DNA of 64,000 nt, from positions 117,452 through 181,451 of the forward strand of contig CAZUHV010000002.1 in assembly GCA_964620965.1 (NCBI GenBank). The letters are read 5' to 3'. Shown here piece after piece: positions 5,178-40,937 of this stretch (position 1 is its first letter; the number at the start of each line of letters is the position of its first letter). Source of the stretch: an uncultured Pseudomonadales bacterium (GTDB lineage: Bacteria; Patescibacteriota; Microgenomatia; UBA1400; PJMF01). The notes beneath the pieces are model-generated. The model did not search any database. It was not told the DNA's origin and saw nothing but the letters and a program-made list of their open reading frames with translations. The position numbers and the translations under genes are program-made.

Positions 5178-6218
5178 ATGAGAAAAAATCTAAATAATAC
5201 TTTTTATCTTTCTTTCTTGGCAATTTTGTTTGTTCTTGTGTTTTTAGCAACTCCTCAAAAAGCCTCTGCTGCCCAACTTACGGAAGGATATCTCAGACTC
5301 AATAGAATGAAAGCTTCAACTGCTACCGGAGGCACAGTCTGTGCAAAGATGGCAACAACAGCTGGAACAGACGCTAAAATAAAGGTTACTTTCCCAACAG
5401 GCTTTACAGTAAACTCTACTGCAAGCAACTGGACTGTTACCACTTCCAATCTTCCAGAAAATGGAAGTGCAATGCCAGGTATAGATACTGCAACTGCAGT
5501 ATCTGGACAAACAGTAACTTTCCCGATCTCAGACATTTCTTCAAACTCAACACTATATTGTTTTAACTTTGCAAGTTCTAGCACATTAACTACAAGTACA
5601 GCAGGAAACGACAAAACGGGTTCTATCTCTGTCACTACAAGTGGTGACTCAGAAATAGATGGTGGTATTTATGCAACCTCAGTTATCTCTGATGACCAAG
5701 TAGTTATTACTGCTACTGTTCCTGCAACATTTAGTTTCGCCTTAGGATCTAACACTCAATCACTCGGAACACTTTCAACTGGAAGTGTAAGCTCAGGATC
5801 TGGTGTGAGTGTCACAATTGGAACTAATGCTGGTAATGGTTGGATTGGTTGGGTACTCAGTGCAAATGCCGCCCTTAATTCTGCTGCAACAAGTGATGCT
5901 ATTTCTACGACTGGCTCTGTAGATAACTCCCCTAGCACTCTCTCTGCTGGAACCGAAGGATATGTTTTAGATGCAGATCTTACTTCCGATTCTGCGACAA
6001 GTGGCACTGGAAGTGTGACAATTGATGCAGAATATAATGGCACAACAACAAGTCAAGGTGGAACCCTTTCGACAACATTTACAGAATTCGCCTCTGCAGA
6101 TGGACCAACAGATAGTGACGTTATCACACTTGTCCCTAGAGTTGCAATTTCTGCCTTAACCCAAGCTGCTACAGATTACACTGACACTCTCACAGTTGTT
6201 GCTGCTGGACACTTCTAG
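5178..6218 (+). CDS. secreted Ser/Thr/Gly-rich cell-surface protein, paralogue A
   Basis: Signal peptide MRKNLNNTFYLSFLAILFVLVFLATPQKASA|AQ, then low-complexity beta-rich sequence ending ...ATDYTDTLTVVAAGHF. The C-terminal roughly 100 aa are paralogous to 8864..9907. Confidence 0.7.
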   Translation: MRKNLNNTFYLSFLAILFVLVFLATPQKASAAQLTEGYLRLNRMKASTATGGTVCAKMATTAGTDAKIKVTFPTGFTVNSTASNWTVTTSNLPENGSAMPGIDTATAVSGQTVTFPISDISSNSTLYCFNFASSSTLTTSTAGNDKTGSISVTTSGDSEIDGGIYATSVISDDQVVITATVPATFSFALGSNTQSLGTLSTGSVSSGSGVSVTIGTNAGNGWIGWVLSANAALNSAATSDAISTTGSVDNSPSTLSAGTEGYVLDADLTSDSATSGTGSVTIDAEYNGTTTSQGGTLSTTFTEFASADGPTDSDVITLVPRVAISALTQAATDYTDTLTVVAAGHF

Positions 6219-6241
6219 TCTTTATGTCATAGTATTCAAGT

Positions 6242-7375
6242 ATGAGGATTCGACTTAAGTACATATTTTTTTTGTTTTTCTTAATAGCACAGTTATTCTT
6301 TGTTAATACAAAAATTGCTTTCGCCCAAACTGAAACTAGTGAACCAGAGGCAACCGAATCTGCTCAAGAATTTATATATATCGAACCAAATTCAGAACCA
6401 CTCAACCTTACAATTTCTCCTGCAACCTTACTATTAGATACAAAACCAGGAAACCCAGTAAATACTTCTTTTCAAGTCTTTAATAATTCTACAGAAACTG
6501 AGTATCTTAAAATTGACTTACTCACATTTGGTGCAAATGCCACTGGAGACGAACCGGTTATCAAGCCCTTCGAACTAGGAGATGATTCCGAATCTTGGCT
6601 CACTTTTGATAATAAAAACATAACAGTTCAACCAAAAACTTGGAAAACTGTTCACGTAACCTTTTCTCCACCAGAATCTGCAGCGCTTTCATACTACTAT
6701 TCAATAGTAATTTCAAGACAAACCTCACAAACCATAAAAGAAGGAGAAACAAACGTTGTTGGAGCTCCTGCTTTGCTATTACTTGCTACTGTTCAATCTC
6801 CATACGCAAAGCAAGAGTTACAGTTGAAAAGCTTCAAAACTACAAAAAAAATATTTGAGTTTCTTCCTGTGGAATTTGAGTTAACAATACAAAATACAGG
6901 AAATGTACATCTTGCTCCAGTTGGTAACATATTTATAGATAGCAGCAGAGAAAAAGATGTTGGATTGATTCAAATAAACAGAACAAATGGTCTCATACTT
7001 CCAGGCTCAACAAGAACATATACACTAAGGTGGGAAGACGGATTTCCAGTTTTTGCCGATAAACAAGTAGATGGCTCTATAGTAACTGACTCAGCCGGAA
7101 ATCCAAAGAAAGAACTCAAATGGGATTTTTCTAAAGCAAACTTTTTTAGGTTTGGAAAATACACTGCACACCTTTTATTTATTTTTGACAACGGAGAAAG
7201 AGACGTCCCAACAGAGGCTAAACTATCATTTTGGGTCCTACCATATAGGATACTTGTTATCTTTGGTTTAGTTGGAGGTACAACTATTCTTGGGATAGCC
7301 ATCCCACTAGTACTTATATTTAAACGTATGCGAAAACAAAATGAAAAAAAACAAACTCCCACTGAAACTAAATAG
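6242..7375 (+). CDS. secreted beta-sandwich protein with a C-terminal transmembrane anchor (CscA-like, DUF916/DUF3324-type architecture)
   Basis: N-terminal signal peptide, a LTISPATLLLDTKPGNP...FQVFNNS segment, a TIQNTGNVHLAPVGNIFID motif, and a C-terminal TM ILVIFGLVGGTTILGIAIPLVLIF followed by a basic tail KRMRKQNEKK. Confidence 0.65.
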   Translation: MRIRLKYIFFLFFLIAQLFFVNTKIAFAQTETSEPEATESAQEFIYIEPNSEPLNLTISPATLLLDTKPGNPVNTSFQVFNNSTETEYLKIDLLTFGANATGDEPVIKPFELGDDSESWLTFDNKNITVQPKTWKTVHVTFSPPESAALSYYYSIVISRQTSQTIKEGETNVVGAPALLLLATVQSPYAKQELQLKSFKTTKKIFEFLPVEFELTIQNTGNVHLAPVGNIFIDSSREKDVGLIQINRTNGLILPGSTRTYTLRWEDGFPVFADKQVDGSIVTDSAGNPKKELKWDFSKANFFRFGKYTAHLLFIFDNGERDVPTEAKLSFWVLPYRILVIFGLVGGTTILGIAIPLVLIFKRMRKQNEKKQTPTETK

Positions 7376-8279
7376 ATACTTTCATATTCTTTTTCTATTT
7401 ATTTTTATATACTTCTTTCCAAAAGCAGTATTTGCACAAGAATCTCTTACTGTTTCGCCTGCATACCAAGAAGTAGTTCTTGAACCTCAAAATGATTCTA
7501 GTGAGTTCAGTATCTCTATCAGAAATGACACAAAAATAGCAGAGTCTTTCGAACTATTTGCTGTTGAGTTTCCTTCTGGTGCACAGTTTGGATCACTTGG
7601 ATTTATTGATTTTGATTCAAGCGATATTAAACAACAGCCGAGCTACATTTCATTTGACACTCAACAGTTTGTTGTTGATCCAAATACTTCAAAAGAAATT
7701 CACGCTACTATCGAAAACCGAGCAAGCTTAAAACCAGGTGGAACGTATCTTTCTGTTATTATTCGATCCTTGAGAGAAAAAAATAGCTCTGGGCAAACAA
7801 TTCTTCCAGCATTCGCTTCTCAACTTCTAATTCGAAAAACTGAAGGTGAGATAAAAAATATTTCACTTAAAACTGTCAGCGATACAGACAAAATTATATC
7901 ATTTACGATCCCAAAAACTGTAAAACTGTTATTTGAAAATAATGGAAATGTACACCTCATTCCTAGAGGAGAAGTGCGAATCGATACAGTATTTGGTGAA
8001 ACAATAAGTCAAGGAATAATTAATGAATCATCTTCTTATGTATATCCAGATAGTCAAAAAGAAATTACTGTACAGCTTTCTCAAGTAAATAAAAAAATAC
8101 CAATCTCGCTCATCACAATTACTGCTTTTGGCTCAGCCAATTCTATAGAATATAGAGCAGAACACTCATATATTTATATCAACCCATACTTTGTGGGCAT
8201 ATCCGCAACACTTTTTTTCTTGTTTATACTCTATGCATTCAAAAAGATAAAAAAACAACCAAAACATGAAACTGAATAA
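7341..8279 (+). CDS. second CscA-like secreted protein with a C-terminal TM anchor; paralogue of 6242..7375
   Basis: Signal peptide, LTVSPAYQEVVLEPQND...FSISIRNDT, ENNGNVHLIPRGEVRID motif, and C-terminal TM YFVGISATLFFLFILYAF plus KKIKKQ. It overlaps the previous gene by 35 nt. Confidence 0.65.
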   Translation: MKKNKLPLKLNRYFHILFLFIFIYFFPKAVFAQESLTVSPAYQEVVLEPQNDSSEFSISIRNDTKIAESFELFAVEFPSGAQFGSLGFIDFDSSDIKQQPSYISFDTQQFVVDPNTSKEIHATIENRASLKPGGTYLSVIIRSLREKNSSGQTILPAFASQLLIRKTEGEIKNISLKTVSDTDKIISFTIPKTVKLLFENNGNVHLIPRGEVRIDTVFGETISQGIINESSSYVYPDSQKEITVQLSQVNKKIPISLITITAFGSANSIEYRAEHSYIYINPYFVGISATLFFLFILYAFKKIKKQPKHETE

Positions 8280-8844
8280 AGTTATTTTAATCTGTACAAC
8301 TGTATTTTTTGTTATACTTTTTAGTATATACCTGTGGGGAAATACACCAAATTCCGGTGAAATCATTAGCACAGCTCAAACCACACAATTAAATGAAGAT
8401 CTAGAAATTAAAACTAATACAGAAGAAAAAAATTCTTGTTTTTCATTTTTTCATGATCAAAACATTACTCAAATCAAAACAGAAGAATTCGATACAACTT
8501 GTATCATTCGAGCAAAAGTCGAAAAACCAATTGGACAACTGAGCATTTCTGTTGTTCAAAATACAGAAAATAAAAACTTTGACTTAGCAGAACAAACCGG
8601 AGTAACCTTACGAAAAAGTTTGCCCGATATCTACACACAAGAAATAAATATCCAAAACAAGCCAAAATTTTTTGAAAACGATAGCAATTTCAACTCAATT
8701 ATTTTTACTAATAAAACAGAAATTACAGGATTTTTTACTCAATCGAACAAACTCCTTACCGTTTCTATCCACGATGTTGCTACAATAAATGAAGAAGTTA
8801 TTTCTATCTTTGAAGAAACTCTTGATGGAGTAACAATTTATTAA
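8266..8844 (+). CDS. hypothetical signal-anchored protein
   Basis: A 192-aa ORF with an N-terminal hydrophobic segment ILICTTVFFVILFSIYLW. It overlaps the upstream gene by 14 nt, which suggests an operon. Confidence 0.5.
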   Translation: MKLNKVILICTTVFFVILFSIYLWGNTPNSGEIISTAQTTQLNEDLEIKTNTEEKNSCFSFFHDQNITQIKTEEFDTTCIIRAKVEKPIGQLSISVVQNTENKNFDLAEQTGVTLRKSLPDIYTQEINIQNKPKFFENDSNFNSIIFTNKTEITGFFTQSNKLLTVSIHDVATINEEVISIFEETLDGVTIY

Positions 8845-8863
8845 GTACCACTAAACAAAAGTA

Positions 8864-9907
8864 ATGAAGCCAAAACTGCTGTTTTTATTATTATTCTTTG
8901 TAATACCAGCTAGTACAAATTATAAACTAGACGCACATGGTATTGGATCGGGTGGGGGAATCACAAATTCATCATCTTATTCATTACTAGGAACAACCGG
9001 AGAACAATCTAGTAAAACAGAGGGATCTTCATACTCTGTTTGGTCTGGGATTCAATTTGCCGAAATGGCAAATACTCCACCTGCACCAACATTTGTTAAT
9101 GAAGATTCATACTATAATAAGCTAAGAATTACACTTGATACTGGAAATAATCCAACAGATACCCTCTACGCAATAGCAATTTCTACAGACAGTTTTACCA
9201 CAACAGAATATGTACAGTCGGACAACACTGTTGGCTCCACACTTGGAAGTGAAGATTGGCAAACATATGCAGATTGGGGAGGAAGTAGTGGTGAATTCGT
9301 TGTAGGGCTTGATGCTGATACAACCTACCAAGTAAAAGTAAAAGCAATTCAAGGAGATTACACAGAAAGCCCATATGGACCAAGTGCTTCTGCAGCAACT
9401 TCCGCTTTAACACTTTCTTTTGATATTGATGTCAGTTCAATTGATGAGGAAACAGCCTCACCTTATGAAGTTTCTTTAGGTTCACTCAATCCCGACACTG
9501 TTATCACGGCAACAGATAAAATATGGCTCGATCTTTCAACAAATGCAAATAATGGAGCAGTCATTTATGTGGCTGGCAGTACCGGAGGTTTATACAGCAA
9601 CTCTACAGCACACACTATCTCTGGTGTCAGTGCAGATTTAACTGGAGTATCAGAAGGATTCGGCTTAAAATCTGCAAGTGTTGCTGAAAGCAGCGGAGGT
9701 CCCTTAACTGCTGTTTCTCCATATAATGGTAGTAGTGATACTGTTGGTACTATAGCAACAACACTTGCATCTTTGTATAATACCTCTACTGCACCAATTA
9801 GTGCTGCAAGAGGGTCAATAGATATCAAAGCAAAGGCACAGTCACTCACACCTTCTGCAACAGACTATGCTGAGACTTTGACGTTCATTGCCGCAGCTAA
9901 TTTTTAA
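8864..9907 (+). CDS. secreted Ser/Thr/Gly-rich cell-surface protein, paralogue B
   Basis: Signal peptide MKPKLLFLLLFFVIPAS. The C-terminal region EGFGLKSA...YNGSSDT...ATDYAETLTFIAAANF aligns with the C-terminus of 5178..6218. Confidence 0.7.
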   Translation: MKPKLLFLLLFFVIPASTNYKLDAHGIGSGGGITNSSSYSLLGTTGEQSSKTEGSSYSVWSGIQFAEMANTPPAPTFVNEDSYYNKLRITLDTGNNPTDTLYAIAISTDSFTTTEYVQSDNTVGSTLGSEDWQTYADWGGSSGEFVVGLDADTTYQVKVKAIQGDYTESPYGPSASAATSALTLSFDIDVSSIDEETASPYEVSLGSLNPDTVITATDKIWLDLSTNANNGAVIYVAGSTGGLYSNSTAHTISGVSADLTGVSEGFGLKSASVAESSGGPLTAVSPYNGSSDTVGTIATTLASLYNTSTAPISAARGSIDIKAKAQSLTPSATDYAETLTFIAAANF

Positions 9908-9982
9908 TCAAAAAATTCCACCGTTTCGGACTTTGTTCTACTAGTTAATAGCGTAGAGAAATTGCTATATTGACAAGGTAAT

Positions 9983-11833
9983 ATGTTTAATAAAAACCAC
10001 TGGTTAGCTGGTCTTGTTTTTGGTAGTGTACTCATGCTCTTTTCAGTGGTATTTTTTAATCCAATTTTTGCTGCAACAGGAATTAATGAAAACATACATT
10101 TTCAAGGCAAAGTAGTAAATACAGACGGCACAAATGTAGCAAATGGAGACTACGATTTTGTCTTCAAACTCTATACTGTAGATTCTGCGGGAACTGCCAT
10201 TTGGACAGAAAATAGAACTTCTGCAAACCAAGTCACAGTCACCGATGGGGTCTTTAGCGTAGACTTGGGATCTGTGACTGCACTACCTGGTTCCGTTGAT
10301 TTTAATACCGATAATATTTACTTGGGTGTTGAATTTAACGGGGATGGAGAGATGAGTCCAAGAATCCAATTTACTGCTGTTCCATATGCTCATAATGCCG
10401 CAAAAGTTGGGGGACTTACTGTTACAGATACAACAAGCACTCTTACAATTCCAAGTGGTATAACTGTTGCTTTTTCTGGCTCAAATGATACAACTTTTAC
10501 AACATCAGGATCTACTAACGTAACACTCCCAACAACCGGTACACTTGCAACTCTTGCAGGGAGTGAAACTTTGACAAACAAAATTATTGGAAACACAGGT
10601 CTTACTTTTTCTGGAGCAACTACAGACATTACAACAGGAACCAACGAACACCTTTCAATTATGCCAAATGGAACTGGAAATGTTGGTATTGGAACTACCA
10701 ATCCATCAGAAAAACTGTATGTTTACAACTCTGTTAATAATCAAACTGGTTTTGTAGTTAGCAATGATAACTCCGGCAGTGCAGCTCAAGCCTTCTTTGC
10801 TATTGGTAGCAATCCTACAGCGAATCCATGGAATGGAGTATTTTTTCAGCACTATGGAGCAAACTTTACACCAAATGGCTTAAGAATGCCTAGTTCAACA
10901 ACAATAATTGGTGGTGGAAGCAATGGCTTAAGTATTGGAACAGATAATAGTTCTTCACTAAACTTTTTTACTAGTGGTGTTGCAAGTGGGGCAGATATGA
11001 CGTTAAATAGTAGCGGAAACTTAGGTATTGGAACAACAAACCCTACAGAACTACTACACGTTAATGGAAATATTAGAGCTAATGGATCAGTGGCTGGAGT
11101 AACAACTCTAGCAAGCTCTGGAGACTGGACTTGGACTGCGACAACACCAAACATTACAATTAACTCTGCTGAAGTTTTTACTATCACTGATGGCACTGAT
11201 ACTTTTACAGTTAATACCTCCGGCTCATTATTCTCATTCTTAGACGGATCTTCAAATGGGTTTACATTTGACGCTGATACAGGCCCTCTATTCGCTGGTA
11301 CAGCAAGACCTGCAAGAAAAGAAAAACTCGTACCAGAATATCCAGGTGCAGTACTTACCGGAGACGGAAGTAATAATACTGGAACTATGACTTCAGACTT
11401 CTGTGAACAAGGTGCACATGCCGATATCCCTGATATAAACACCACAACTTGTAATACGTCTGGAGATATCCACAACTACTACAGCTGGACTACCAATCAA
11501 GGATCTGCTCAAGATTATGACATTTGGGTGCGCTGGAGAATTCCAGATAACTTCGCCGTATGGGATTCAAACCCAATCCAAGTATATGCAAAACGTACAG
11601 ATACAACTAATAATGCAGTTACTGCGTTCGTATACGACACGGCTGGTGCCTTAAACAATGCCGGAGGCACCCAAATCGCTGGAACAACTTGGACGCAAAC
11701 AGCTATCTCTCTTTCTGGAGGCACTTGGACTGCTGGCTCTTATGTAACTATCAGAATAACCGTAGCCGCTGATACTGGAGGGGATAGTGTGCAAGTTGGA
11801 GAAATAAACCTTAACTACCTTACGAATAATTAG
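9983..11833 (+). CDS. secreted fibre-like surface protein with repeated GN[VL]GIGTTNP motifs
   Basis: Signal peptide ...PIFA|ATG. The repeats GNVGIGTTNPSEKLYV and GNLGIGTTNPTELLHVNGNI are of the type seen in tail-fibre-like proteins. The sequence is Thr/Ser/Gly-rich and 616 aa long. Confidence 0.7.
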   Translation: MFNKNHWLAGLVFGSVLMLFSVVFFNPIFAATGINENIHFQGKVVNTDGTNVANGDYDFVFKLYTVDSAGTAIWTENRTSANQVTVTDGVFSVDLGSVTALPGSVDFNTDNIYLGVEFNGDGEMSPRIQFTAVPYAHNAAKVGGLTVTDTTSTLTIPSGITVAFSGSNDTTFTTSGSTNVTLPTTGTLATLAGSETLTNKIIGNTGLTFSGATTDITTGTNEHLSIMPNGTGNVGIGTTNPSEKLYVYNSVNNQTGFVVSNDNSGSAAQAFFAIGSNPTANPWNGVFFQHYGANFTPNGLRMPSSTTIIGGGSNGLSIGTDNSSSLNFFTSGVASGADMTLNSSGNLGIGTTNPTELLHVNGNIRANGSVAGVTTLASSGDWTWTATTPNITINSAEVFTITDGTDTFTVNTSGSLFSFLDGSSNGFTFDADTGPLFAGTARPARKEKLVPEYPGAVLTGDGSNNTGTMTSDFCEQGAHADIPDINTTTCNTSGDIHNYYSWTTNQGSAQDYDIWVRWRIPDNFAVWDSNPIQVYAKRTDTTNNAVTAFVYDTAGALNNAGGTQIAGTTWTQTAISLSGGTWTAGSYVTIRITVAADTGGDSVQVGEINLNYLTNN

Positions 11834-11835
11834 AT

Positions 11836-14800
11836 ATGCATATGCTCTTCCAACAACTCGCAAAAATTAAACTTAAGAAAAAAATACTTGTTAAGTCAAC
11901 AAGATTTGTTTTAGCACTCTGGTTTATTATTTCTAACTTTTTGTTTGGCTTTCCAATTGACTACATTTTAAAAACACCAGTTGTGATTCAACAAGCGAAA
12001 GCAAATTCAAACACCTATGACTTTACTGACTGTGGCAGCACCTGTGATACTGACACCGGGTGGTGGGCATCTGACGATGATGTCGATCAGTTTCCGTTTG
12101 GTGGAGTTACAGCAAATCGAAACACACATGCAGAAGCAGACGATACAAACTATTCTAATATGGCAAACTCAGATGATACTTATGCAGTAGCAACTAATCC
12201 AAGCACTGGAGATGAAGTATTCAGCTGGTTTGAAATGACCATTACTGAAACGCCAAGCACTATTAAACAACTTGACTTTACTTTTGAAGGGTATCCTAAC
12301 ACTACTGCCTCACCATTTCAAATTTATGTCAAAACCGCCGCTGGTGCCTATGAATCTGATGCTTCATGGACTGCGCTTTCTGGACCAACAACAATTGCAG
12401 CTGGTACTGACACAACGATAACTCGTACACTCAAAGATAATATTACTGATTACATCGATGGAAATGGCAAAATAGTTTGGGGTGTCTACCAATCTGTATC
12501 AGCGCTTACCGTTAATATCGACTACGCAAAAATTGACGTTACATACCATCCAGTTGATTTAGAAGGATACAGATGGAGAAATGATGACGGCAACGAAACT
12601 GGCGCTACTTGGCTGGCAGATCAAGACAGCAATATTACTCAGCCAACAGCAACCAATACTAGACTGCGCACACTCATTAACTCAACGGGTACCGCTGATC
12701 CAGATACAAGCCAATATAAACTTGAATATAAACGTTCTACTGACAGTACTTATGTCCCAGTCGAGGTCACAACTCCCACAGATGTCACACCGACAATAGA
12801 ATCATGGTCTTCTGGTGCTTCAACTACAACTAATGCGTCTACTCATGCCATCACAATGCCTTCTGGAATTACTGCTGGTGATTTGCTTATCATAGTTTTT
12901 TCAACAGATGGTGTCGCAGATATTACCATCACAGCTGGTGATTGGATTGAACTAAGTCAAGCTCAAGGAAGTGGCGTTTCTAGTGGTATTTTTTATAAAT
13001 TTGCAACGGGCTCTGACACTGCAACGGTTGCAACTGGTTCAGAACAGACTTCCCATATTGTCTATAGAATTAGTGGTGCTAGTATGCCATATATTGCCCA
13101 AACAACTGGAAATAGTACTAACTCAGATCCACCAAATTTAGATACTGGCACTTCTCGAAACTATTTGTGGCTTGCTACTGCAACACATGATTCTACTGTT
13201 GTTGCATCAGCTGCGCCAACAAACTACTCAAATCTACATACCCAAGCTGCTGCAGGAACTGGTGGAGCATCTACGAGTACTGCAGAACGAGCTGCAACTG
13301 CCTCAAGCGAAAACCCAGGTACTTTTACTAGCAATACAGAGCAATGGGTTTCTTTTACAATTGCAATTCCTTCTTCAAGTATGGGAATACATTGTGCAAC
13401 CGCTCCAACAACCCAAGGTACAACAAGTGTTGTTATAAACTATCCAACGGATATAGCTGTCGGTGATCTCATGGTTCTGGGCATTGCAAATAAACATACT
13501 CCAAATGGTCCAACAACTCCCACTGGCTGGACTGCTGCCTCAAACTACCAAGCCTCAGGGAGTGGAGGTATTGATGGTCTAGACAGTGGAAGTGTGTACT
13601 CGTCAGTTTATTACAGAATTGTTGATGGTACAGAAAAAGGTACTTTTACTGTGAGTGTTCCCTCTGGAAATGCATCTATTGGCAGAATTTTGACGTATCG
13701 AAAGGAAGTCGGCAAAGAATGGGATGTTGCCATGTCAAATGGATCAGACAATACTCCAGATACCTCTTGGTCAATCACTGCTGGTTCTGACCCTGGAATA
13801 ACTGCTGGAGACATGGTCTTAGCGGTCAGTGCAATGAATACTGATCCCTATGGATATAACACACAAACCTTAGCAGCAACTGGCGTAACTTTTGACAGTG
13901 CAGAAAAAGAAGTCGGTGAGACAAATAGTACTGCTGGTAATGACCTTGAAATTGTTTTTTCAAACCATTTTGCGATTTCTGGCACCAGTAGTGCTGCTCC
14001 AACATACACTATGACAGCTAGTGGTTCTACTGCCAGTGGTCCTGCTGGAGCAACTGTTTTTGTGAGAATCCGCCAAAGAACTGCTCCAATCACTTTGTCT
14101 GCAAGTACTCATATTACTGCAAGTGGTGATAATACTACTGCTTTATTAACTCCTCCAGCAGGAAAAACTACTGGTGACTTTCTTACTGGTCGTATGCAAG
14201 ATGATGAAAATCCCGCAGATACTATTAACCTCTCTTCTAGCCAATACACAGAACTAGAATGGAATATTATTGCAACAAGTACGGCTGTGAATGATGAAAT
14301 TTACCAATTTAGAGTAACTGTAGGAGGTGTGCCAATTACTACTTACTCTGTAACACCACAGTGGACAATCGGTACTGCTGGAACGGCAGACCTTAATCAA
14401 ATTCATTACCGCTGGAGAAATGATGATGGCACAGAAGGATCATCTGGCTGGTACGATTCAAACTGGGTGTATAGAAAAAAGCTCACAATTGATAATACAG
14501 ATGTGGCAGGTAGTTCTAACCTCACCAACTTTCCTGTCTTGATTAACTATACACACGCTGATTTAAAAGATACAACCAACTCTGGTCACGTAGCACAATC
14601 AGATGCTGGTGATATTCTGTTTACTAACTCTGCGGGTACTAAACTTGACCATGAAATTACCAAATATGTGCCATCAACAGGTCAAGTAATTGCTTGGGTA
14701 GAAGTTGATGTTTTAGACTATGACGATGACACAGAAATTTATATGTACTATGGTTACGGTGCGGCTAGTGACCAATGGAATATAAGCGGAACTTGGAGCA

Positions 14801-16584
14801 ATGGCTATGTTATGGTGCAACATTTTAACGAAACTTCAGGAACTCACTTTGACTCTACTTCCAATAATAATGATTCAACCTCTGTGACTGTCACAACACA
14901 AGGTACTGCCACAGCCCAAATTGATGGAGCTGATGATTTTAATGGTTCTAATAACTATGTTGCCGTTGGTGATTCCAATTCACTAGATGTTACAAATTTT
15001 ACTATTTCTGGATGGTTTTCTATTGATACATTTCCTGGAACAGATCAATACAATAATATTCTTGATAAACAAGCCTATTTCCTTGAAGTAACAGATAACG
15101 ACGAATTTGACTGTGGAGTATACGATGGAAGTTTTTCTGAACATAACTCTGGTACCGCAAATCTCTCAACCGGAACTTACTACTATCTTGCCTGTGCATA
15201 TGATGATACGGGGGATACTGTTAGATTATATAAAAATAGTACTGAAGTATTAAATGAAGCTGCAACCAAAACACCAGCAACAAATAATATCGATATTGGT
15301 ATATACGCTCTTAGCGGAAATTTAGGCCAACAGCTCGACGGTCAAGCTGATGAGCTGGTTCTATCTAATGTCGCCCGTTCTGCGGATTGGCTCAACACCG
15401 AATACAACAACCAAAGTAATCCTGGAGTTGGAGGCTTTCTCACCAGTATAGGCACTGAAGAAACCGAAGGAACGGGCGCAACCTGGTTAGCGAATGAAGA
15501 CACGGCAGTTACAGATATTGCTAAAGAAACAAACGTAAGAATAAGATTTATGGTTTCTAATGAAGGTGGTGCTACATCAGATGCTACAGCATACCAATTA
15601 GAAGTTGCAGAAACTGGTACTTGTAGTGGTGGAACATATGCTGCTGTCCCAACTGACACGAGTGGAGACTGGCAAGTTTCGGCCTCAGCACATTTTACAG
15701 ACGGAGATCCCACAACAAATATTGCAAGTGGTCTAGCAGATGAAAACACAACTTTTGTTGCTGGACAAATTAAAGACACTGGCAACACTACAGGAAATAT
15801 CACATTAGCAGATACAGAATTTACAGAAATAGAGTTTTCCATTCAAGCTACAACCAATGCTACTGACGGTGGCTCGTACTGCTTTAGATTAAATGGTGCA
15901 GATACGTTCACTGAATACGCACAAGCCACACTCGAGGGAGGGGCAAGCCCCGTTTTTTCACTGAGTGCCTATCGATTTTATGATCAAACAGCTTCAGAAA
16001 ATGTCACAAACCCTTGGGGAAATCCTACTATTGCTGAAAATACACTACTTGCTCTTCTGCCAGCAACTAACACTCCTCCAGGAAATAGAGAAGATATAAG
16101 ACTAAGAGTTGGCATATCAGTTAGTACTGGGGCACTCTCCGCAACGAGTCAACAATTTAAATTACAATACAAGTCAGGCACTGATGCAAACTGTACTACA
16201 GGGTCATGGACTGACGTTGGAACGTCTATTAGTAGTGAAACATGGAGATACTCTACAACAGGTATCACTGACGGTACAACGCTGACAGCTCTTAAATTAT
16301 CTGGAAGTGATGTATTAGGCGTGTATGTAAAATCAAATCCAAGCGCAACAAACCCAAATGCTGTAGCTGTTGGAGAAACAGTTGAATATGATTTCAACTT
16401 TAAAGGCTTTAGTGCTGCATCAGCAACCACATATAGCTTTAGAGTTGTCGAAAGTGATGGAACTCCTTTAACAACATACACCTACTGTCCGACTCTTACA
16501 ACAAAAGCCGCTACAGAACAAGAATTACGGCACGGAAACGTGTTTTCTAATGAGACAGAACAAGGATTTACCCGTGCAAATTAG
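11836..16584 (+). CDS. giant (1582 aa) surface protein with Ig-like repeats and DUF2341 and LamG/concanavalin-like modules
   Basis: N-terminal TM FVLALWFIISNFLFGF. Repeated domain-start motifs appear: EGYRWRNDDGNETGATW, IHYRWRNDDGTEGSSGW and GTGATWLANEDTAV. A DUF2341-like segment reads WVYRKKLTIDNTDVAGSSNLTNFPVLINY...GDILFTNSAGTKLDHEI...IYMYYGYG. A LamG-like segment follows: FNGSNNYVAVGDSNSLD...FTISGWFSID...YYLACAYDDTGDTVRLYKNS. Confidence 0.8.
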   Translation: MHMLFQQLAKIKLKKKILVKSTRFVLALWFIISNFLFGFPIDYILKTPVVIQQAKANSNTYDFTDCGSTCDTDTGWWASDDDVDQFPFGGVTANRNTHAEADDTNYSNMANSDDTYAVATNPSTGDEVFSWFEMTITETPSTIKQLDFTFEGYPNTTASPFQIYVKTAAGAYESDASWTALSGPTTIAAGTDTTITRTLKDNITDYIDGNGKIVWGVYQSVSALTVNIDYAKIDVTYHPVDLEGYRWRNDDGNETGATWLADQDSNITQPTATNTRLRTLINSTGTADPDTSQYKLEYKRSTDSTYVPVEVTTPTDVTPTIESWSSGASTTTNASTHAITMPSGITAGDLLIIVFSTDGVADITITAGDWIELSQAQGSGVSSGIFYKFATGSDTATVATGSEQTSHIVYRISGASMPYIAQTTGNSTNSDPPNLDTGTSRNYLWLATATHDSTVVASAAPTNYSNLHTQAAAGTGGASTSTAERAATASSENPGTFTSNTEQWVSFTIAIPSSSMGIHCATAPTTQGTTSVVINYPTDIAVGDLMVLGIANKHTPNGPTTPTGWTAASNYQASGSGGIDGLDSGSVYSSVYYRIVDGTEKGTFTVSVPSGNASIGRILTYRKEVGKEWDVAMSNGSDNTPDTSWSITAGSDPGITAGDMVLAVSAMNTDPYGYNTQTLAATGVTFDSAEKEVGETNSTAGNDLEIVFSNHFAISGTSSAAPTYTMTASGSTASGPAGATVFVRIRQRTAPITLSASTHITASGDNTTALLTPPAGKTTGDFLTGRMQDDENPADTINLSSSQYTELEWNIIATSTAVNDEIYQFRVTVGGVPITTYSVTPQWTIGTAGTADLNQIHYRWRNDDGTEGSSGWYDSNWVYRKKLTIDNTDVAGSSNLTNFPVLINYTHADLKDTTNSGHVAQSDAGDILFTNSAGTKLDHEITKYVPSTGQVIAWVEVDVLDYDDDTEIYMYYGYGAASDQWNISGTWSNGYVMVQHFNETSGTHFDSTSNNNDSTSVTVTTQGTATAQIDGADDFNGSNNYVAVGDSNSLDVTNFTISGWFSIDTFPGTDQYNNILDKQAYFLEVTDNDEFDCGVYDGSFSEHNSGTANLSTGTYYYLACAYDDTGDTVRLYKNSTEVLNEAATKTPATNNIDIGIYALSGNLGQQLDGQADELVLSNVARSADWLNTEYNNQSNPGVGGFLTSIGTEETEGTGATWLANEDTAVTDIAKETNVRIRFMVSNEGGATSDATAYQLEVAETGTCSGGTYAAVPTDTSGDWQVSASAHFTDGDPTTNIASGLADENTTFVAGQIKDTGNTTGNITLADTEFTEIEFSIQATTNATDGGSYCFRLNGADTFTEYAQATLEGGASPVFSLSAYRFYDQTASENVTNPWGNPTIAENTLLALLPATNTPPGNREDIRLRVGISVSTGALSATSQQFKLQYKSGTDANCTTGSWTDVGTSISSETWRYSTTGITDGTTLTALKLSGSDVLGVYVKSNPSATNPNAVAVGETVEYDFNFKGFSAASATTYSFRVVESDGTPLTTYTYCPTLTTKAATEQELRHGNVFSNETEQGFTRAN

Positions 16585-17191
16585 AATAATTACTTTTGCA
16601 ATATTTTTTCTTTTTTTAGTGTTTATAACATACAACTTGTTTTTTGTTCCAGATGATCATTCAAAATCAGAAGGGTCAACTCTCGCTCTTTCAAGTGATG
16701 GTTCAAAAACAGATATATTTATTCAAGATAGTGAGACTCTCATACCTATCTCTACAGCAAGTGCAAATCATAATGAAGCATTCTCCAGAGGAGACTTTAT
16801 AGTCTGGATAGAAGAATCTCAATATAAAAGTGAAAAAGTTGTCGTTCGGTATCATGTTCCTACACAAACTACTATCTACATAACTTCACTTGGAAGTTCA
16901 CAGAAACCTAAAGTTAGTACAGAAGGTTATGTTGTATGGCAAGAATGGATAGATGAAACCTGGCAGATTTTTTACTTTGATGGTTTGACCAGCAAACAAA
17001 TAACTCACAGTAGTTCGAGCTCTCTTAATCCAGATATTTCTGGAAATACAGTTGTGTATGCTAGAAAAAATGAATCTAACACATGGGAAACTATTGAATT
17101 TTCCCTTAAAAATAACACTGAAAAAGTGGTTAAATCTGGAATTGAAGCTAAAAATCCCTATTTTTATGGCACAAAATTATTTTTTCGCTGA
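16550..17191 (+). CDS. hypothetical signal-anchored protein (beta-propeller-like fragments)
   Basis: A 213-aa ORF with N-terminal TM IITFAIFFLFLVFITYNLFF. It overlaps the end of the giant gene by 35 nt and ends with TGA. Confidence 0.5.
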   Translation: MRQNKDLPVQIRIITFAIFFLFLVFITYNLFFVPDDHSKSEGSTLALSSDGSKTDIFIQDSETLIPISTASANHNEAFSRGDFIVWIEESQYKSEKVVVRYHVPTQTTIYITSLGSSQKPKVSTEGYVVWQEWIDETWQIFYFDGLTSKQITHSSSSSLNPDISGNTVVYARKNESNTWETIEFSLKNNTEKVVKSGIEAKNPYFYGTKLFFR

Positions 17192-19897
17192 AAAATGAAT
17201 TTCATGTAAATATACACTGATTTCGGTATTTAGATAAAGTAAAAAATTTCCCAAAGAAAGCACTAAAAATGGAATTGCATAGTGTTTTTCATATACAAAA
17301 ACAAATAGTATTGCAGTTACTAATGACAAAAGTAAATTAATTTCCAATGCGCTGTCTAAAAAGTGCTTTAACAAAGATATTACTAACGAAAAATAGGATT
17401 TCTGAGCACTCTCTTTTTCAAGTTTTAATAGAGTACTTTCTTCAACTTCTGGCTTAAGATCAATCGACTGTGGAGCATAACCAGGAGCTACAACAGAAGC
17501 TGTAAGTGCTTCATCTAAGCTTTTTGGTACAAAAACCAATCCGTTTCTATGAACCTGTATCAGACTCTTTATCTGACCAGCAGAATCTTGAACTGTCACA
17601 ACTGCATTTCTCACCAACCGCTCAGTCTGAGTATCAACAAGCTTAATTTTATAATACTGACTTCCACCAACAACTAAGGTCTTCTTTTTACTAAAAATAA
17701 ATCTATGGTGGTGCAAAACAGAATGCAGTAATGTTCTTACCGAAAAATGAGATCGGGTTAAAAATCCAAACAAAGTAAGCGGGGTAGTAATACATAAAGT
17801 TAGCAGTGTAATCAATGTCAGCGTTGCATGAGACTCAGATTCCTTTTTCAAAAAGGTAACAAATAACTCAGTCTTTATTTTTGCTGTTTCAACATGATAT
17901 TCCACAGTTTTAAAGTATGGAAAGTATTCTTTTTCTAAATACAGTTGTGGGTAAAAAGTTGCGTTTGTAGTGTCAAATTCTAGAGATTGAGGGACATACC
18001 CAGTACTTTCAACCTCAATAAAATACTTGCCTTTAGGAAAAATAATGTCAATGCTACCTGCTGAGTTTGTAACATATTTTTCAAAAAAATCATATAATTT
18101 TGTAGTCTCATTATATTTTTTTATGTTCACTTTAGCTCGTTCAATCGGAAGTTTTGAGGCAGAATCATATACAGAAAAAGGTTGTACTACTAACAACTTT
18201 CCTAGACTAATATTTTTTTTGCTTCCAGCAAATGATTCTAAAGTTAGATACACCTGATATTTTCCAGGAATGTGTGGAATGGTCAAAGACCCAGACCAAA
18301 TCCCGTTTTGGATTTGGCTTATCTGAGATCCATACTGTGATTCTCCAAGTACTAAGCCTAAATCAATATCTGTTATTGTTTGTAGATATAAAGTTACCGA
18401 CTTTGTATCAAAACCTTCTAACAGTGGCAAAATAACTTCAAGCTCACTTCCTGCAGGAATGAGTAAATATTCCGGATCACCTAAGGAAGGAGAAAAAATA
18501 GGTTTTCCTTTCGAACTAACTGTAAAAGAAGTAAGTGTTACTGGATATGAGTCACTTGCTGTTAAAAATGCTAGTCGTTCAGAGCTACTTTGAACTCCAT
18601 TTTGAATTGAACTCAATAAGACATGGTATTCTTTATCTGGAAACAAATTATCTAAAACCAAGCTGTGGACCTTCTGTATTTGTAGTGACTCAAACACCTC
18701 TAACTTGGTCCCATCAACTGAGTAAACCGTCGCAGTTAGAGTACCAGGAGTATTCAAAATAACCTGCAACTCAGCAGATGTGCTCTCTACCGCAACTATT
18801 TTGTATGATACATACCCCGAAGATGCAGTTGTAGTAACTGCTGTTTGGCTTGTTGTACTTGCAGCCGGCGAAGAAGTTGGGGTAGGTGTACTCCCAGTAT
18901 TTGAAGTCGAAGATCCAGAAGAGCTTGAAACATACTTATAACTCACTTCACTTGTACTGTCTGTTGTGGTAACTGGATTTGTAATACGACTATTCACTTG
19001 AGCTGTTACTTCAGAGGACCCTGTATATTGAGCTGTAGTTTTTAGTATAAATGAGACTGTTTGGTTTTGAGTATTACCAGGAATTGCTGAAATCGTCCAA
19101 GTAATTGTTCTGTTGGTTAAGTTGATAACCGGCTCTGTATTATTATAAGCATCAGTGGCACTCCCAGCTACGTACTCAAAAAGGTCTACTGATGGAGAAC
19201 CAGCTCCAAAAATCGTCCCTTGTTCCCATTCTGCGACAATCGTTAGAGGTGTTGAAAAATCGTACTCAGTTCCATAAGTGATCACATACTCAATCTGCGT
19301 ATTCTGAGGAATTTGAGTTACTGAATCCTGCGTACTAATAACTGCAGAAAAATCAGAAATAGGAGGCAAAACTTGACCTGTAACAACTATTTGATCGTTT
19401 GAAACTACTGGAACAACTATGTCGACTAGATCAACTTGAGAACCACCTTGCCTTGTTTCTAACTGCCAAATATATTCACTAGAACTTCCTTGAGTACTTG
19501 GGTTGTTAGTTATTCCTCCAGTGATATAAAAACCATACGTTATTCCAACAGATAGATCCCCACTTGGAAACACTACTGTCTGCCCAGATTTTTGAACTGC
19601 TGTTCCAATACCTGGCCATGCAGTAATACCACTTGGTAGACCTGAAGTTGAAACTGTATATGAGCTCGCTACACTTGATATTGTCCATAAATTTGAAATC
19701 GTAACAGCTACTTGATCTTCAGTAACTCCTACACTTGAAACTGTTGCTGTAATCAAAACTGGAAGAGGAACACTTGAAACCTTATTTCTCTCTGGTCGAA
19801 CTGTTGCATTAGAAAAATCTGCCAAAACAGACTGGGGAATAAACAAAAAAAAGACCAACAAAAAGAAAGCTGTGACTCGACAGATAAGTTGTTTCAT
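17177..19897 (-). CDS. large (906 aa) secreted/anchored surface protein with carboxypeptidase-regulatory-like (Cna-B-like) domains and C-terminal TM helices
   Basis: Signal peptide MKQLICRVTAFFLLVFFLFIPQSVLA, long Ser/Thr-rich tracts, and a KYFIEVESTGYVPQ-type beta-sandwich. C-terminal hydrophobic segments flank a His-rich loop (LHSVLHHHRF). It is convergent with the plus-strand cluster. Confidence 0.75.
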   Translation of the reverse strand: MKQLICRVTAFFLLVFFLFIPQSVLADFSNATVRPERNKVSSVPLPVLITATVSSVGVTEDQVAVTISNLWTISSVASSYTVSTSGLPSGITAWPGIGTAVQKSGQTVVFPSGDLSVGITYGFYITGGITNNPSTQGSSSEYIWQLETRQGGSQVDLVDIVVPVVSNDQIVVTGQVLPPISDFSAVISTQDSVTQIPQNTQIEYVITYGTEYDFSTPLTIVAEWEQGTIFGAGSPSVDLFEYVAGSATDAYNNTEPVINLTNRTITWTISAIPGNTQNQTVSFILKTTAQYTGSSEVTAQVNSRITNPVTTTDSTSEVSYKYVSSSSGSSTSNTGSTPTPTSSPAASTTSQTAVTTTASSGYVSYKIVAVESTSAELQVILNTPGTLTATVYSVDGTKLEVFESLQIQKVHSLVLDNLFPDKEYHVLLSSIQNGVQSSSERLAFLTASDSYPVTLTSFTVSSKGKPIFSPSLGDPEYLLIPAGSELEVILPLLEGFDTKSVTLYLQTITDIDLGLVLGESQYGSQISQIQNGIWSGSLTIPHIPGKYQVYLTLESFAGSKKNISLGKLLVVQPFSVYDSASKLPIERAKVNIKKYNETTKLYDFFEKYVTNSAGSIDIIFPKGKYFIEVESTGYVPQSLEFDTTNATFYPQLYLEKEYFPYFKTVEYHVETAKIKTELFVTFLKKESESHATLTLITLLTLCITTPLTLFGFLTRSHFSVRTLLHSVLHHHRFIFSKKKTLVVGGSQYYKIKLVDTQTERLVRNAVVTVQDSAGQIKSLIQVHRNGLVFVPKSLDEALTASVVAPGYAPQSIDLKPEVEESTLLKLEKESAQKSYFSLVISLLKHFLDSALEINLLLSLVTAILFVFVYEKHYAIPFLVLSLGNFLLYLNTEISVYLHEIHFSAKK

Positions 19898-39191: not shown

Positions 39192-39230
39192 TATTATTCA
39201 ATTGATATTATTTGATATATTATTGATATA
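39192..39230. repeat. four phased direct repeats TTGATAT(A/T)T spaced 9-11 bp apart in the divergent promoter region
   Basis: Copies lie at 39192, 39202, 39213 and 39222, with a degenerate fifth copy near 39160. They sit about 80 nt upstream of the 39314 gene. Confidence 0.6.
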
Positions 39231-39313
39231 TTTGATATATTAATATATAATTATGGGACATTAAATGTGCTACCCAGTTAAAACAGCACATAGAAAGAAA
39301 AAAAGAGTAACCT

Positions 39314-40333
39314 ATGAATAAAACAAAACTTTTGTCTTTACTCATGATTGCAACCGGAATCGGTTTAGTCTTAAGTAAACCAATTGGAAACGCAAATGCT
39401 GAAACTGTTTGGCCAACTTCCCTAGCAGATTGTCAAGCAAGATTCCCTGAAGGAATTAGTTTTTGCCACGCAACCCATGCAGAAAACAATCCATATAATT
39501 TCCATTATAGCCAACCTTGTACTGCTGCTTTTGGCAGTGGACATGGTAACAGTGGTCATTTTGAAGAGGATGGTACTCCTGCAGCCGGGCATGAATTTCC
39601 AGAAATAGGAACAGCAGATTACTTTACTGACGACAGATCTTGTGGCCAAGATGAACCAGTTTGTGAAGAAACAGTAACCTGTTCCGATGCTTGTAGAGTA
39701 GAAGATGAAACCATTAGAGGCAACTGTGGACCAATTGTTTGTGAAGCAAATGCTCCAGAGGTTGAAACTTGTCCTTCTGAGTGCGGATATCAAGGTGGTT
39801 TAGTATCAGATGGTGAATGCGGATATATCGAATGCTCAGCTACAGAAAATTGTGAAGAAGAGCCTACTCCTACTCCAACCCCTACACCAGTAAATAATAC
39901 TAAAAATTCATTTTCTACAATTGACCCAAGCTGTGACTCAAATGCAGTAACTGCAATCGAAAAAATTACAGAAAATGGTCAGAATAAAGCAAATGTAAGA
40001 GTTGTGTTTAAATACAACGGTGTTGAAAAAATTGCGTTTACAGACACAAACGGTGAAGCAAAAGTCTCCTTTGACTACACAGGTGATAACTTCGTAGACG
40101 TTATGCCTGATGGCTTTGCTTCCGATGCACACTACATAACCAAAGAAACAAATTGTTCCGAAACTCCAAGTGAAAACGGACAAGTTCTTGGTGCTTCAAC
40201 AGAAGGTCAAGTTTTAGGTGCAACAACCTATGCTGAGACAGGTGTCGCTGAAGATGTTATGATGTCTATACTAGGATTAGCTGGAGCAGGTATGTTCTCT
40301 ACTGGCTTAGTGTTGAATGTCAAAAAGAAGTAA
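39314..40333 (+). CDS. Cys/His-rich secreted surface protein with a C-terminal sortase sorting signal
   Basis: Signal peptide LLSLLMIATGIGLVLS. A Cys-rich N-terminal domain of about 20 Cys is followed by a PTPTPTPTP linker and a beta-sandwich. The C-terminus has YAETG, then the hydrophobic stretch MMSILGLAGAGMFSTGLVL and a KKK tail. Confidence 0.7.
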   Translation: MNKTKLLSLLMIATGIGLVLSKPIGNANAETVWPTSLADCQARFPEGISFCHATHAENNPYNFHYSQPCTAAFGSGHGNSGHFEEDGTPAAGHEFPEIGTADYFTDDRSCGQDEPVCEETVTCSDACRVEDETIRGNCGPIVCEANAPEVETCPSECGYQGGLVSDGECGYIECSATENCEEEPTPTPTPTPVNNTKNSFSTIDPSCDSNAVTAIEKITENGQNKANVRVVFKYNGVEKIAFTDTNGEAKVSFDYTGDNFVDVMPDGFASDAHYITKETNCSETPSENGQVLGASTEGQVLGATTYAETGVAEDVMMSILGLAGAGMFSTGLVLNVKKK

Positions 40334-40937
40334 AAAAATCAAAGACAAGAAAATAAATAAAGACGCCCCAACACTACTTTTGCTAGTGGGGGCGTTTTTT
40401 ATGCTTATTTCTGCTGCGCATTGGCATTTGAAATATCAAGCTCTTTCTTTAGATAAACAATTGCTTGAACAATATTCTGAAGCAAAACAGAGTGACACAT
40501 CTGGAATGATACCAACTCATATATTCATTCAATGGTTTATTGACACCTCCATAACTGAACAACTTTTTAATAACGAAAACTGGACAATCTCCGATACGGA
40601 GGCTTCTTACCTTTCTCAGTCAGCAAAGCCTGGAGAAAAAGGAAATATTATCATCTACGGACACAATAAACGATCGATTATGGGAAACATTAGAGCCTTA
40701 AAAGGTAACGAAATCATTATACTAACAACTAAGGATGGATCTGTTCATCAGTACAAAATTGAAAAACTCATCGAAGTAAATCCAAACCAAACTGAATATC
40801 TAGAGCCAACCCAAGAAGAAACCTTAACTTTGTACACATGTTCTGGATTTTTAGATAGCAAAAGATTTATTGTGCAAGCAAAACCAATTGTTACGCCCGT
40901 CGAAAAAACAGAGGACACATCTCAACTTGATCAATAG
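40317..40937 (+). CDS. sortase (transpeptidase)
   Basis: N-terminal TM LLLLVGAFFMLISAA. It carries a catalytic His (IIYGHN) and the TLTLYTCSGF Cys motif. It overlaps the substrate gene by 17 nt. Confidence 0.8.
   Translation: MSKRSKKIKDKKINKDAPTLLLLVGAFFMLISAAHWHLKYQALSLDKQLLEQYSEAKQSDTSGMIPTHIFIQWFIDTSITEQLFNNENWTISDTEASYLSQSAKPGEKGNIIIYGHNKRSIMGNIRALKGNEIIILTTKDGSVHQYKIEKLIEVNPNQTEYLEPTQEETLTLYTCSGFLDSKRFIVQAKPIVTPVEKTEDTSQLDQ

Follow-up and report, generated by a model that had tools for sequence, protein, structure and literature searches.

Among described sortases, class E enzymes read a LAxTG signal, and a conserved tyrosine in their β3/β4 loop (Y229 of SrtE1) has been proposed to read the alanine at P3; the class D enzyme of Clostridium perfringens, CpSrtD, acts preferentially on LPQTGS and leaves LAETG unprocessed (PMC5148588). 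A sorting enzyme that stands beside its single target has been termed a "dedicated system", the example being class GN (TIGR03784; PMC3237569). In bacteria of the candidate phyla radiation (CPR), the sortase family fam000526 was found in more than half of the genomes and near-ubiquitously in Microgenomates (PMC6744442), and a complete Microgenomates genome is reported to encode "a sortase" (PMC7143001). Here we analyze a sortase gene and the gene directly upstream of it in a 64-kb stretch of contig CAZUHV010000002.1 (hereafter the window). We read the pair as a two-gene cassette of a Microgenomates-type CPR bacterium in which a membrane-anchored sortase would act on its cognate, probably only, substrate and display it covalently on the wall, and we place the probability of this reading at about 0.68.

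Sortases are common in CPR bacteria, but the proteins that they anchor have not been described before. The window sortase very probably belongs to the same protein family as fam000526, for which the published work reports presence or absence and no cognate signal, overlap, or pairing (Meheust et al. 2019; PMC6744442). In the literature we found no published account of a cognate signal, of an overlap with an upstream substrate gene, or of one-to-one pairing for CPR sortases, and no paper in which "YAETG" appears or CPR sorting signals are described.

Overlapping substrate and sortase genes

The substrate gene (39314..40333, plus strand) encodes a predicted secreted modular surface protein of 339 amino acids with a C-terminal sorting signal, and the sortase gene (40317..40937, plus strand) encodes a PF04203 protein of 206 amino acids. 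The two overlap by 17 A-rich nucleotides (40317..40333, plus strand), exactly the overlap of the sortase gene with the substrate 3' end that the first-pass annotation had described. Within it, AATGTCAAAAAGAAGTAA reads N-V-K-K-K-stop in the substrate frame and M-S-K-R-S-K in the sortase frame, the sortase starting within the last substrate codons. Such an overlap suggests that the two genes may be translationally coupled.

The arrangement recurs in dozens of independent genomes across this branch of CPR bacteria, which speaks against a chance occurrence. A sortase-alignment scan of one genome per GTDB species gave 80 loci, which together with other loci brought the set to 83 sortase genes, representing about 80 GTDB species (loci are labeled with L numbers and substrate homologues with P numbers). 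A signal-bearing open reading frame (ORF) was found directly upstream on the same strand in 69 of these 83 cases. In each of the 23 distinct relatives with at least 46% sortase identity to the window, the genes overlap by 14 to 35 nucleotides (mode, 20), and the overlap length equals 2 modulo 3 in 41 of 50 overlapping pairs. Because the overlap is conserved, a single A-rich tract in these genomes specifies the basic tail of the signal in one frame and, in another, the basic cytoplasmic N terminus of the sortase. The 34 substrate homologues all come from Patescibacteria or unnamed metagenomic sources, and 10 of them share a contig with a sortase homologue. A narrow metagenome scan with the signal alignment returned a single locus, itself a substrate-sortase pair, and the C-terminal 60 amino acids of the substrate, used alone as a homology query, gave no match (the word index yielded 12 candidates).

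In the closest named relative, the Patescibacteria metagenome-assembled genome BroJett025, the pair occupies a syntenic place on a 1.17-Mb contig and is flanked by glycogen-metabolism genes and by split transketolase, LDH, and Fpg genes. The BroJett025 sortase (L001, 9917-10498) is annotated with 165 amino acids; an upstream ATG extends it to 193 amino acids and restores the conserved type of overlap. At another locus (L003, 9148-10035), a substrate of 295 amino acids was left uncalled, and two spurious antisense ORFs were called in its PS-rich linker instead. The pairing is thus under-annotated: gene callers often miss the substrates, calling antisense ORFs in the PS/PT linkers, and cut the sortase short at its start.

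Probably one signal-bearing gene per sortase

Further substrates were sought with a hidden Markov model (HMM) of the signal, run against all ORFs of at least 50 amino acids in 0.94 Mb of nonredundant sequence, made up of 81 loci and the 64-kb window; flanks of ±6 kb were sampled per locus, and the sample is biased to the sortase neighborhood. The model replaced a looser regular expression (xxxT[GSA] followed by a transmembrane helix and a basic C terminus), which was abandoned after it produced 98 "nonadjacent" matches, nearly all of them spurious ORFs. With the HMM, 47 matches lay directly upstream of a sortase and one lay elsewhere, and that lone nonadjacent match was an exact 822-nucleotide duplicate of a substrate and the 5' end of its sortase. 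The two copies (L006, 5199-6020 and 6762-7583), the second downstream of the sortase, represent either an assembly artifact or a recent tandem duplication. Only one signal-bearing ORF was found in the 64-kb window. Given zero independent matches in about one genome-equivalent, extra substrates placed at random in genomes of about 1 Mb would be bounded at roughly three or fewer per genome. At a locus with two sortases (L032, 5818-8675), each has its own upstream substrate, one with FAATG and the other with LAATG.

The proposal of the first-pass annotation that the sortase is dedicated to its neighbor gains support from both the adjacent pairing and the ratio of 47 adjacent matches to 1 other. 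The same annotation had called for a search for other YAETG- or LAxTG-type proteins and had taken their absence, together with a missing catalytic triad, as grounds for rejecting the idea. The search found none that is independent in the 0.94 Mb, and other candidates lie near the sortases of a few loci, as discussed below; a lack of further substrates is, on the contrary, what a dedicated system leads one to expect.

The sorting signal

The substrate has the tripartite LPXTG-type architecture, with a motif, a transmembrane helix, and a basic tail at the extreme C terminus, and it carries an N-terminal signal peptide. The YAETG pentapeptide (40229..40243, plus strand; residues 306 to 310), with predicted cleavage between T309 and G310, is directly preceded by the duplicated GQVLGAST/GQVLGATT (40178..40228, plus strand; residues 289 to 305). 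It is followed by the acidic VAED, the helix VMMSILGLAGAGMFSTGLVL, and NVKKK (40244..40330, plus strand), which include a hydrophobic stretch of 20 residues; AlphaFold2 (AF2) models a helix at residues 312 to 337. No Pfam family matched the substrate, and an LPXTG_anchor match was subthreshold only (TIGR01167; 11.5 bits and an E value of 0.37 against a cutoff of 15.9 bits).

Comparison of 84 distinct tails gave the consensus GQVLGA[ST]T-[YLFM]-A-x-T-G. P4 is Leu in 33, Tyr in 30, Phe in 9, and Met in 9; P3 is Ala in 67, Gly in 9, and Ser in 8, and never Pro; P1 is Thr in 82; and P1' is Gly in 73 and Ser in 11. The signal had been called noncanonical in the first-pass annotation, and its alanine at P3, its tripartite build, and its conservation over these tails agree with that description. 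The sequence G-Q-V-L-G-A-[ST]-T directly upstream of the pentapeptide is conserved and often duplicated, with V, L, G, and A invariant in two alignments, and the pentapeptide is followed by [IV]-x-E-D, then a helix, and then a K/R tail. P4 tracks the similarity of the sortase: sortases with 50% identity or more stand beside YA[EAK]TG (occasionally with M or F at P4), and distant ones stand beside LAxTG or LSxTG, as would be expected of an enzyme and an adjacent signal that evolve together. The predicted cognate peptide is GQVLGATTYAETGVAED, with cleavage at T|G.

A sortase far below all class cutoffs

The enzyme begins with a basic, Lys/Arg-rich N terminus and a transmembrane anchor (40317-40430, plus strand; residues 1 to 38), and its catalytic domain spans residues 65 to 190 (40509-40886, plus strand). 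The candidate catalytic residues, all encoded on the plus strand, are H116 in YGHN (40662-40664), C175 in LTLYTCSG (40839-40841), and R183 in KRFIV (40863-40865). The protein is a member of the sortase superfamily: it matches the peptidase C60 family PF04203 with 74.3 bits (E value, 9.4e-21; gathering cutoff, 26.6 bits), and H116, C175, and R183 are invariant in all 31 aligned members of its clade. The catalytic triad, the lack of which the first-pass annotation had named as a ground for rejection, is therefore present. The AF2 model, with a predicted local distance difference test (pLDDT) score of 77.6, consists of a helix at residues 7 to 44 and an eight-stranded barrel, and in Foldseek it matched solved sortases of classes C, D, A, and E about equally (E values of 1e-8 to 2e-10), so that the search of the Protein Data Bank (PDB) gave no class assignment. 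The transpeptidase activity that we infer for the enzyme would be directed at the adjacent signal. The C-terminal tail of the sortase, VTPVEKTEDTSQLDQ, is conserved in the closest relatives only.

Against the class models of NCBIfam, whose cutoffs are 140 to 166 bits, the window sortase scored 40.9 bits for SrtD (NF058671; cutoff, 140), 34.7 bits for class GN (TIGR03784; 158.25), 34.4 bits for class D (NF033746; 165), 31.3 bits for class F (166), 29.5 bits for class E (NF033747; 160), and 27.9 bits for class C (NF033745; 160). The class E model gave a best E value of 9.5e-10 among the 30 members that it matched. None of the 31 clade members came near the cutoff of any model (A to F and GN), the best E values being only 1e-10 to 1e-13. 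Since all class models fall far below cutoff for all members, the clade is, as judged from these profiles, an unclassified branch of the sortase superfamily. The first-pass annotation had likened the enzyme to pilin-specific (class C) or class E sortases; with scores of 28 to 41 bits against cutoffs of 140 to 166 bits, neither membership is supported. The clade members come from Woese-, Pace-, Levy-, Ames-, Davies-, Gottesman-, Beckwith-, Curtiss-, and Cerribacteria, which are Microgenomates-type CPR lineages. Many GTDB "binchicken" records of metagenome-assembled genomes in which this sortase occurs bear titles such as uncultured Pseudomonadales, Gammaproteobacteria, Alphaproteobacteria, or Bathyarchaeia, and these titles look unreliable for taxonomy.

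Class E, represented by SrtE1 and SrtE2 of Streptomyces coelicolor, SrtF of Corynebacterium diphtheriae, and SrtA of Actinomyces oris, shares with the window pair an alanine at P3 followed by x-T-G, a tripartite signal, an N-terminal membrane anchor, and a His-Cys-Arg triad. It differs in its profile (29.5 against 160 bits), in its actinobacterial hosts, and in a housekeeping, one-to-many relation to substrates where the CPR enzyme appears to have one adjacent substrate in the 0.94 Mb of flanks. The CPR signal has Tyr, Phe, or Met at P4 as often as Leu, and it carries the GQVLGA[ST]T extension. As to the tyrosine proposed to read P3 in class E, AF2 places β3 at residues 96 to 99 (ASYL) and the β3/β4 loop at residues 100 to 109 (SQSAKPGEKG), which holds no aromatic residue, and Y98, which at least 90% of members share, lies in β3. 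HMMER alignments to CpSrtD and to TfSrtE disagree on the position equivalent to the tyrosine and place other residues there, and the chain numbering is ambiguous.

The likeness to class GN (Haft and Varghese 2011; PMC3237569) is one of organization and not of homology, in that a sortase stands beside the only sorting-signal protein that it serves or, in the CPR pair, appears to serve. The profile score is low (34.7 against 158 bits), and the targets of class GN are vault/VWA-type proteins with LPXTG in a proteobacterial envelope, whereas the protein described here is a Cys-rich/Ig-like mosaic with [YLFM]AxTG in a monoderm-type CPR envelope, encoded by the first of two overlapping genes. Class D, with C. 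perfringens SrtD (4d70) and SrtC/SrtD of Bacillus anthracis, provided the best sequence-level matches (E value of 2e-8 for 4d70; 40.9 bits for NF058671) and resembles the window enzyme in size and in its compact catalytic domain, but these scores too are far below the cutoffs of 140 to 165 bits.

A mosaic substrate with exchanged heads

All elements that the first-pass annotation had listed for the substrate, namely, a signal peptide, a PT linker, a β-sandwich, and YAETG with a hydrophobic stretch and KKK, are present in the ORF, as are the Cys strings CGYQGG and ECGYIEC. The signal peptide (39314..39400, plus strand; residues 1 to 29) begins MNKTK, has a hydrophobic core and an ANA cleavage site, and is modeled by AF2 as a helix at residues 3 to 19. 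It is followed by the head domain (39401..39649, plus strand; residues 30 to 112; ISFCHATHAENNPY...GHFEEDGTPAAGHE...C), which has 4 Cys and an AF2 pLDDT of about 70 to 90, and by a Cys-rich region (39650..39862, plus strand; residues 113 to 183) with 10 Cys and a pLDDT below 50. The linker PTPTPTPTP (39863..39889, plus strand; residues 184 to 192) then leads to an Ig-like β-sandwich (39905..40162, plus strand; residues 198 to 283) of seven strands with a pLDDT above 90. The N-terminal Cys/His-rich domain of the first-pass annotation is thus present, but its estimate of roughly 20 Cys and many His was too high: residues 30 to 185 hold 14 Cys and 6 His, and the whole substrate holds 16 and 7. 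The number of Cys per module is even (head, 4; Cys-rich region, 10; β-sandwich, 2), which is compatible with intramodule disulfides, though only suggestive of them; within the head, C51-C110 and C40-C69 are the predicted pairs.

What the family has conserved is the PT linker, the β-sandwich, the VLGA motif, and the signal, which together make up the C-terminal module; PT/PS linkers occur in most members. C207 and C281 of the β-sandwich are near-invariant and probably form a stapling disulfide. The best PDB matches of the β-sandwich in Foldseek were weak ones to intimin Big_1 domains (E value, 5e-3), and relatives of the substrate gave subthreshold matches to Big_1/CarboxypepD_reg. The Cys-rich region contains two copies of the unit C-x3-C-x10/11-[DG][GN]-x-C-G-x3-C, for which no family model was found in Pfam or NCBIfam and of which the homologue P0016 has three.

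Relatives whose C-terminal half is more than 50 to 60% identical to that of the window protein have different N-terminal domains. The syntenic BroJett025 substrate keeps the Cys-rich repeats and has an unrelated domain in place of the window's head, and other relatives have heads of the "CPEGxGW", "RFSNYTPWFFSADYRVD", or long "WGDIIPP" variants. These comparisons mark the substrate as a mosaic, the heads of which appear to have been exchanged between close relatives.

The head has the pattern ICHAT..NPY...GHF.E.GT..AGHE...C, with C51, H52, H82, G87, G92, H93, E94, D102, and C110 invariant in the alignment. Its three invariant His residues, the Glu, and the Asp lie between the two Cys of a probable disulfide, an arrangement suggestive of a site for a metal or ligand. 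As an analogy only, Corynebacterium has wall-anchored proteins that bind Zn and carry sortase signals (PMC12445094). A heme reading of ICHAT (single-Cys xxxCH) was dropped, its sole support being a nonsignificant Cytochrome_C554 match of P0157. When a profile of the head was searched among 1.84 billion representatives, 1,003 clusters (50%-identity representatives) matched at an E value of 1e-3 or below and 454 at 1e-10 or below. These relatives are mostly small secreted proteins, some with the domain in tandem and some with LPxTG anchors, and one relative is from Chloroflexi; outside the CPR, the head occurs on LPxTG proteins too. Neither Pfam nor NCBIfam has a model for it, and the source names of the relatives gave no annotation. 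Family models could be given to both the head, with its approximately 1,000 clusters, and the 4-Cys repeat.

Dedicated use and its alternatives

Taken together, the sequence comparisons support the dedicated reading but do not prove it. It is unlikely, in our estimate, that the enzyme is instead a housekeeping sortase with many substrates across the genome, the adjacent one being among them and perhaps the most abundant. In Firmicutes and Actinobacteria the relation of sortase to substrate is usually one to many (PMC3237569), multiple surface proteins with "sortase motifs" have been ascribed to CPR genomes (PMC5220378), and the majority of these genomes seem to possess just one sortase, which would then have to serve all substrates. 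Against this stand the finding of no independent second substrate in 0.94 Mb around 82 sortase genes, approximately one genome-equivalent; the retention of adjacency and overlap across sortases down to about 46% identity; and the separate upstream substrates at two-sortase loci. Several observations nevertheless weigh against one-to-one use. At 14 of the 83 sortase genes, mostly distant ones, there is no upstream signal ORF, and the substrate count covers ±6-kb flanks and one 64-kb window, with distant substrates and those with diverged signals out of its reach. Further candidate substrates lie close by at a few loci: a protein of at least 1,135 amino acids ending in EVLGASTELPSTG, with LPSTG, at a locus with two sortases (L048, 2-6519); a 587-amino-acid protein with FAAAG (L016); and proteins of about 750 to 810 amino acids with a [PE]TAG[KN]K end (L070, 2155-4596; L077, 2460-4709; and L078, 2311-4647). 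The tails of the last three, [PE]TAG[KN]K followed by a hydrophobic helix and RKRRK, occur near distant sortases that have no adjacent substrate, and [PE]TAG[KN]K may be a diverged sorting signal. As for the displayed protein, Foldseek found no structural neighbor of the head in the PDB, AF2 confidence is low for about residues 115 to 193, and an adhesin or binder function of the head is a guess.

Assembly of a pilus or fiber, in which the sortase would polymerize the adjacent protein head to tail in the manner of class C, is improbable. Pilus islands typically contain a sortase gene beside that of its substrate, an Ig-like domain is present in the window substrate, and the pilin-specific sortases 6bwe, 2xwg, and 3tbe are among the top Foldseek matches, but those of classes A, D, and E are equally good and the class C profile gives 27.9 bits against 160. 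The DP[WFY] lid motif is absent anywhere in the 206 amino acids of the sortase. The substrate has neither a WxxxVxVYPK-like pilin motif nor an invariant pilin-type Lys, the nearest candidate being Lys239, present in 24 of 31 homologues. Moreover, there is a single substrate gene, several paired substrates (L002, L003, P0017, P0030, and P0031) lack any β-sandwich, and no second, housekeeping sortase that could anchor a polymer was seen. We give hardly any credence to the idea that the C terminus is merely a membrane anchor, with a fortuitous YAETG and a sortase that acts elsewhere. The subthreshold TIGR01167 score (11.5 against 15.9 bits) would fit it, whereas the conservation of the pentapeptide (Thr at P1 in 82, Gly or Ser at P1' in 84, and Ala at P3 in 67 of 84 tails) is strong evidence to the contrary. 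The flanking VLGA and ED are likewise conserved across proteins that share no other domains, and the signal co-occurs with a sortase in 69 of 83 loci.

Proposed mechanism and significance

In the two-gene cassette that we favor, the substrate would be exported via Sec with use of its signal peptide, its 16 Cys would form disulfides within the modules, and its C-terminal hydrophobic helix and KKK tail would hold it in the membrane. The adjacent sortase, with an N-in transmembrane anchor and an extracytoplasmic domain in which Cys175 would act as the nucleophile together with His116 and Arg183, would recognize GQVLGATT-YAETG and, as known for the family, cut between Thr309 and Gly310. It would then transfer the substrate to an amine of a peptidoglycan precursor, resulting in covalent display on the wall; the wall is a plausible target because CPR bacteria have complete peptidoglycan pathways (PMC7143001). 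The displayed protein would consist of a stalk, formed by the PT linker and the disulfide-stapled Ig-like domain, and an exchangeable head, which in this genome would be the His/Cys domain with its two 4-Cys repeats, most plausibly an adhesin or a ligand or metal binder on the surface of an episymbiont. The function that we consider most likely is accordingly to display a variable, adhesin-like protein covalently on the wall, and the cassette would be a mechanistically ordinary variant of a well-known sortase system.

A more far-reaching reading, which we hold tentatively and at somewhat less than even odds, is that the clade constitutes a distinct, so far unclassified sortase class of Microgenomates-type CPR bacteria. 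It would be defined by the overlapping substrate-then-sortase cassette, by the code GQVLGA[ST]T-[YLFM]AxTG with Ala at P3 read without the class E tyrosine, and by the display of one head-swappable adhesin, which may mediate attachment of the episymbiont to its hosts. The enzyme and signal would then be a candidate orthogonal pair for sortase ligation.

If the cassette reading is correct, each of these minimal cells devotes one enzyme to one covalently wall-linked surface protein. The exchange of heads between close relatives would make the swapped heads obvious candidates for a role in recognizing hosts or attaching to them, in organisms that are not yet culturable. The cassette would also define a signal akin to LAxTG, in which P4 is aromatic and a conserved extension of eight residues lies upstream, along with a sortase clade outside classes A to F; this would be of interest to work on sortase specificity and on the engineering of protein ligation.

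Operon context and other features of the window

A promoter-like site, TTGATA-17-TATAAT (39223..39251, plus strand), lies about 60 nucleotides 5' of the substrate ATG and was identified by an 11/12 consensus match only. It is overlapped by three direct repeats of TTGATATATT (39212-39241), spaced 11 and 9 nucleotides apart, which could be an operator or mere AT-rich repetition. Between the substrate and sortase genes there is neither a comparable promoter-like site nor a terminator-like site, and this, with the promoter-like site upstream only, fits a two-gene operon. The neighbors of the cassette are on the opposite strand, a glycosyltransferase gene upstream and truB downstream; the 3' ends of the sortase gene (plus strand) and the convergent truB (minus strand) overlap by 47 nucleotides (40891-40937).

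Rfam and tRNA scans of the window returned nothing relevant. The secA gene is present in the same 64 kb. Nine large ORFs of up to 1,582 amino acids form a run at 5178-19897, in which the Pfam match is one DUF2341 segment only; they are typical of the unannotated surface or large proteins of CPR bacteria.

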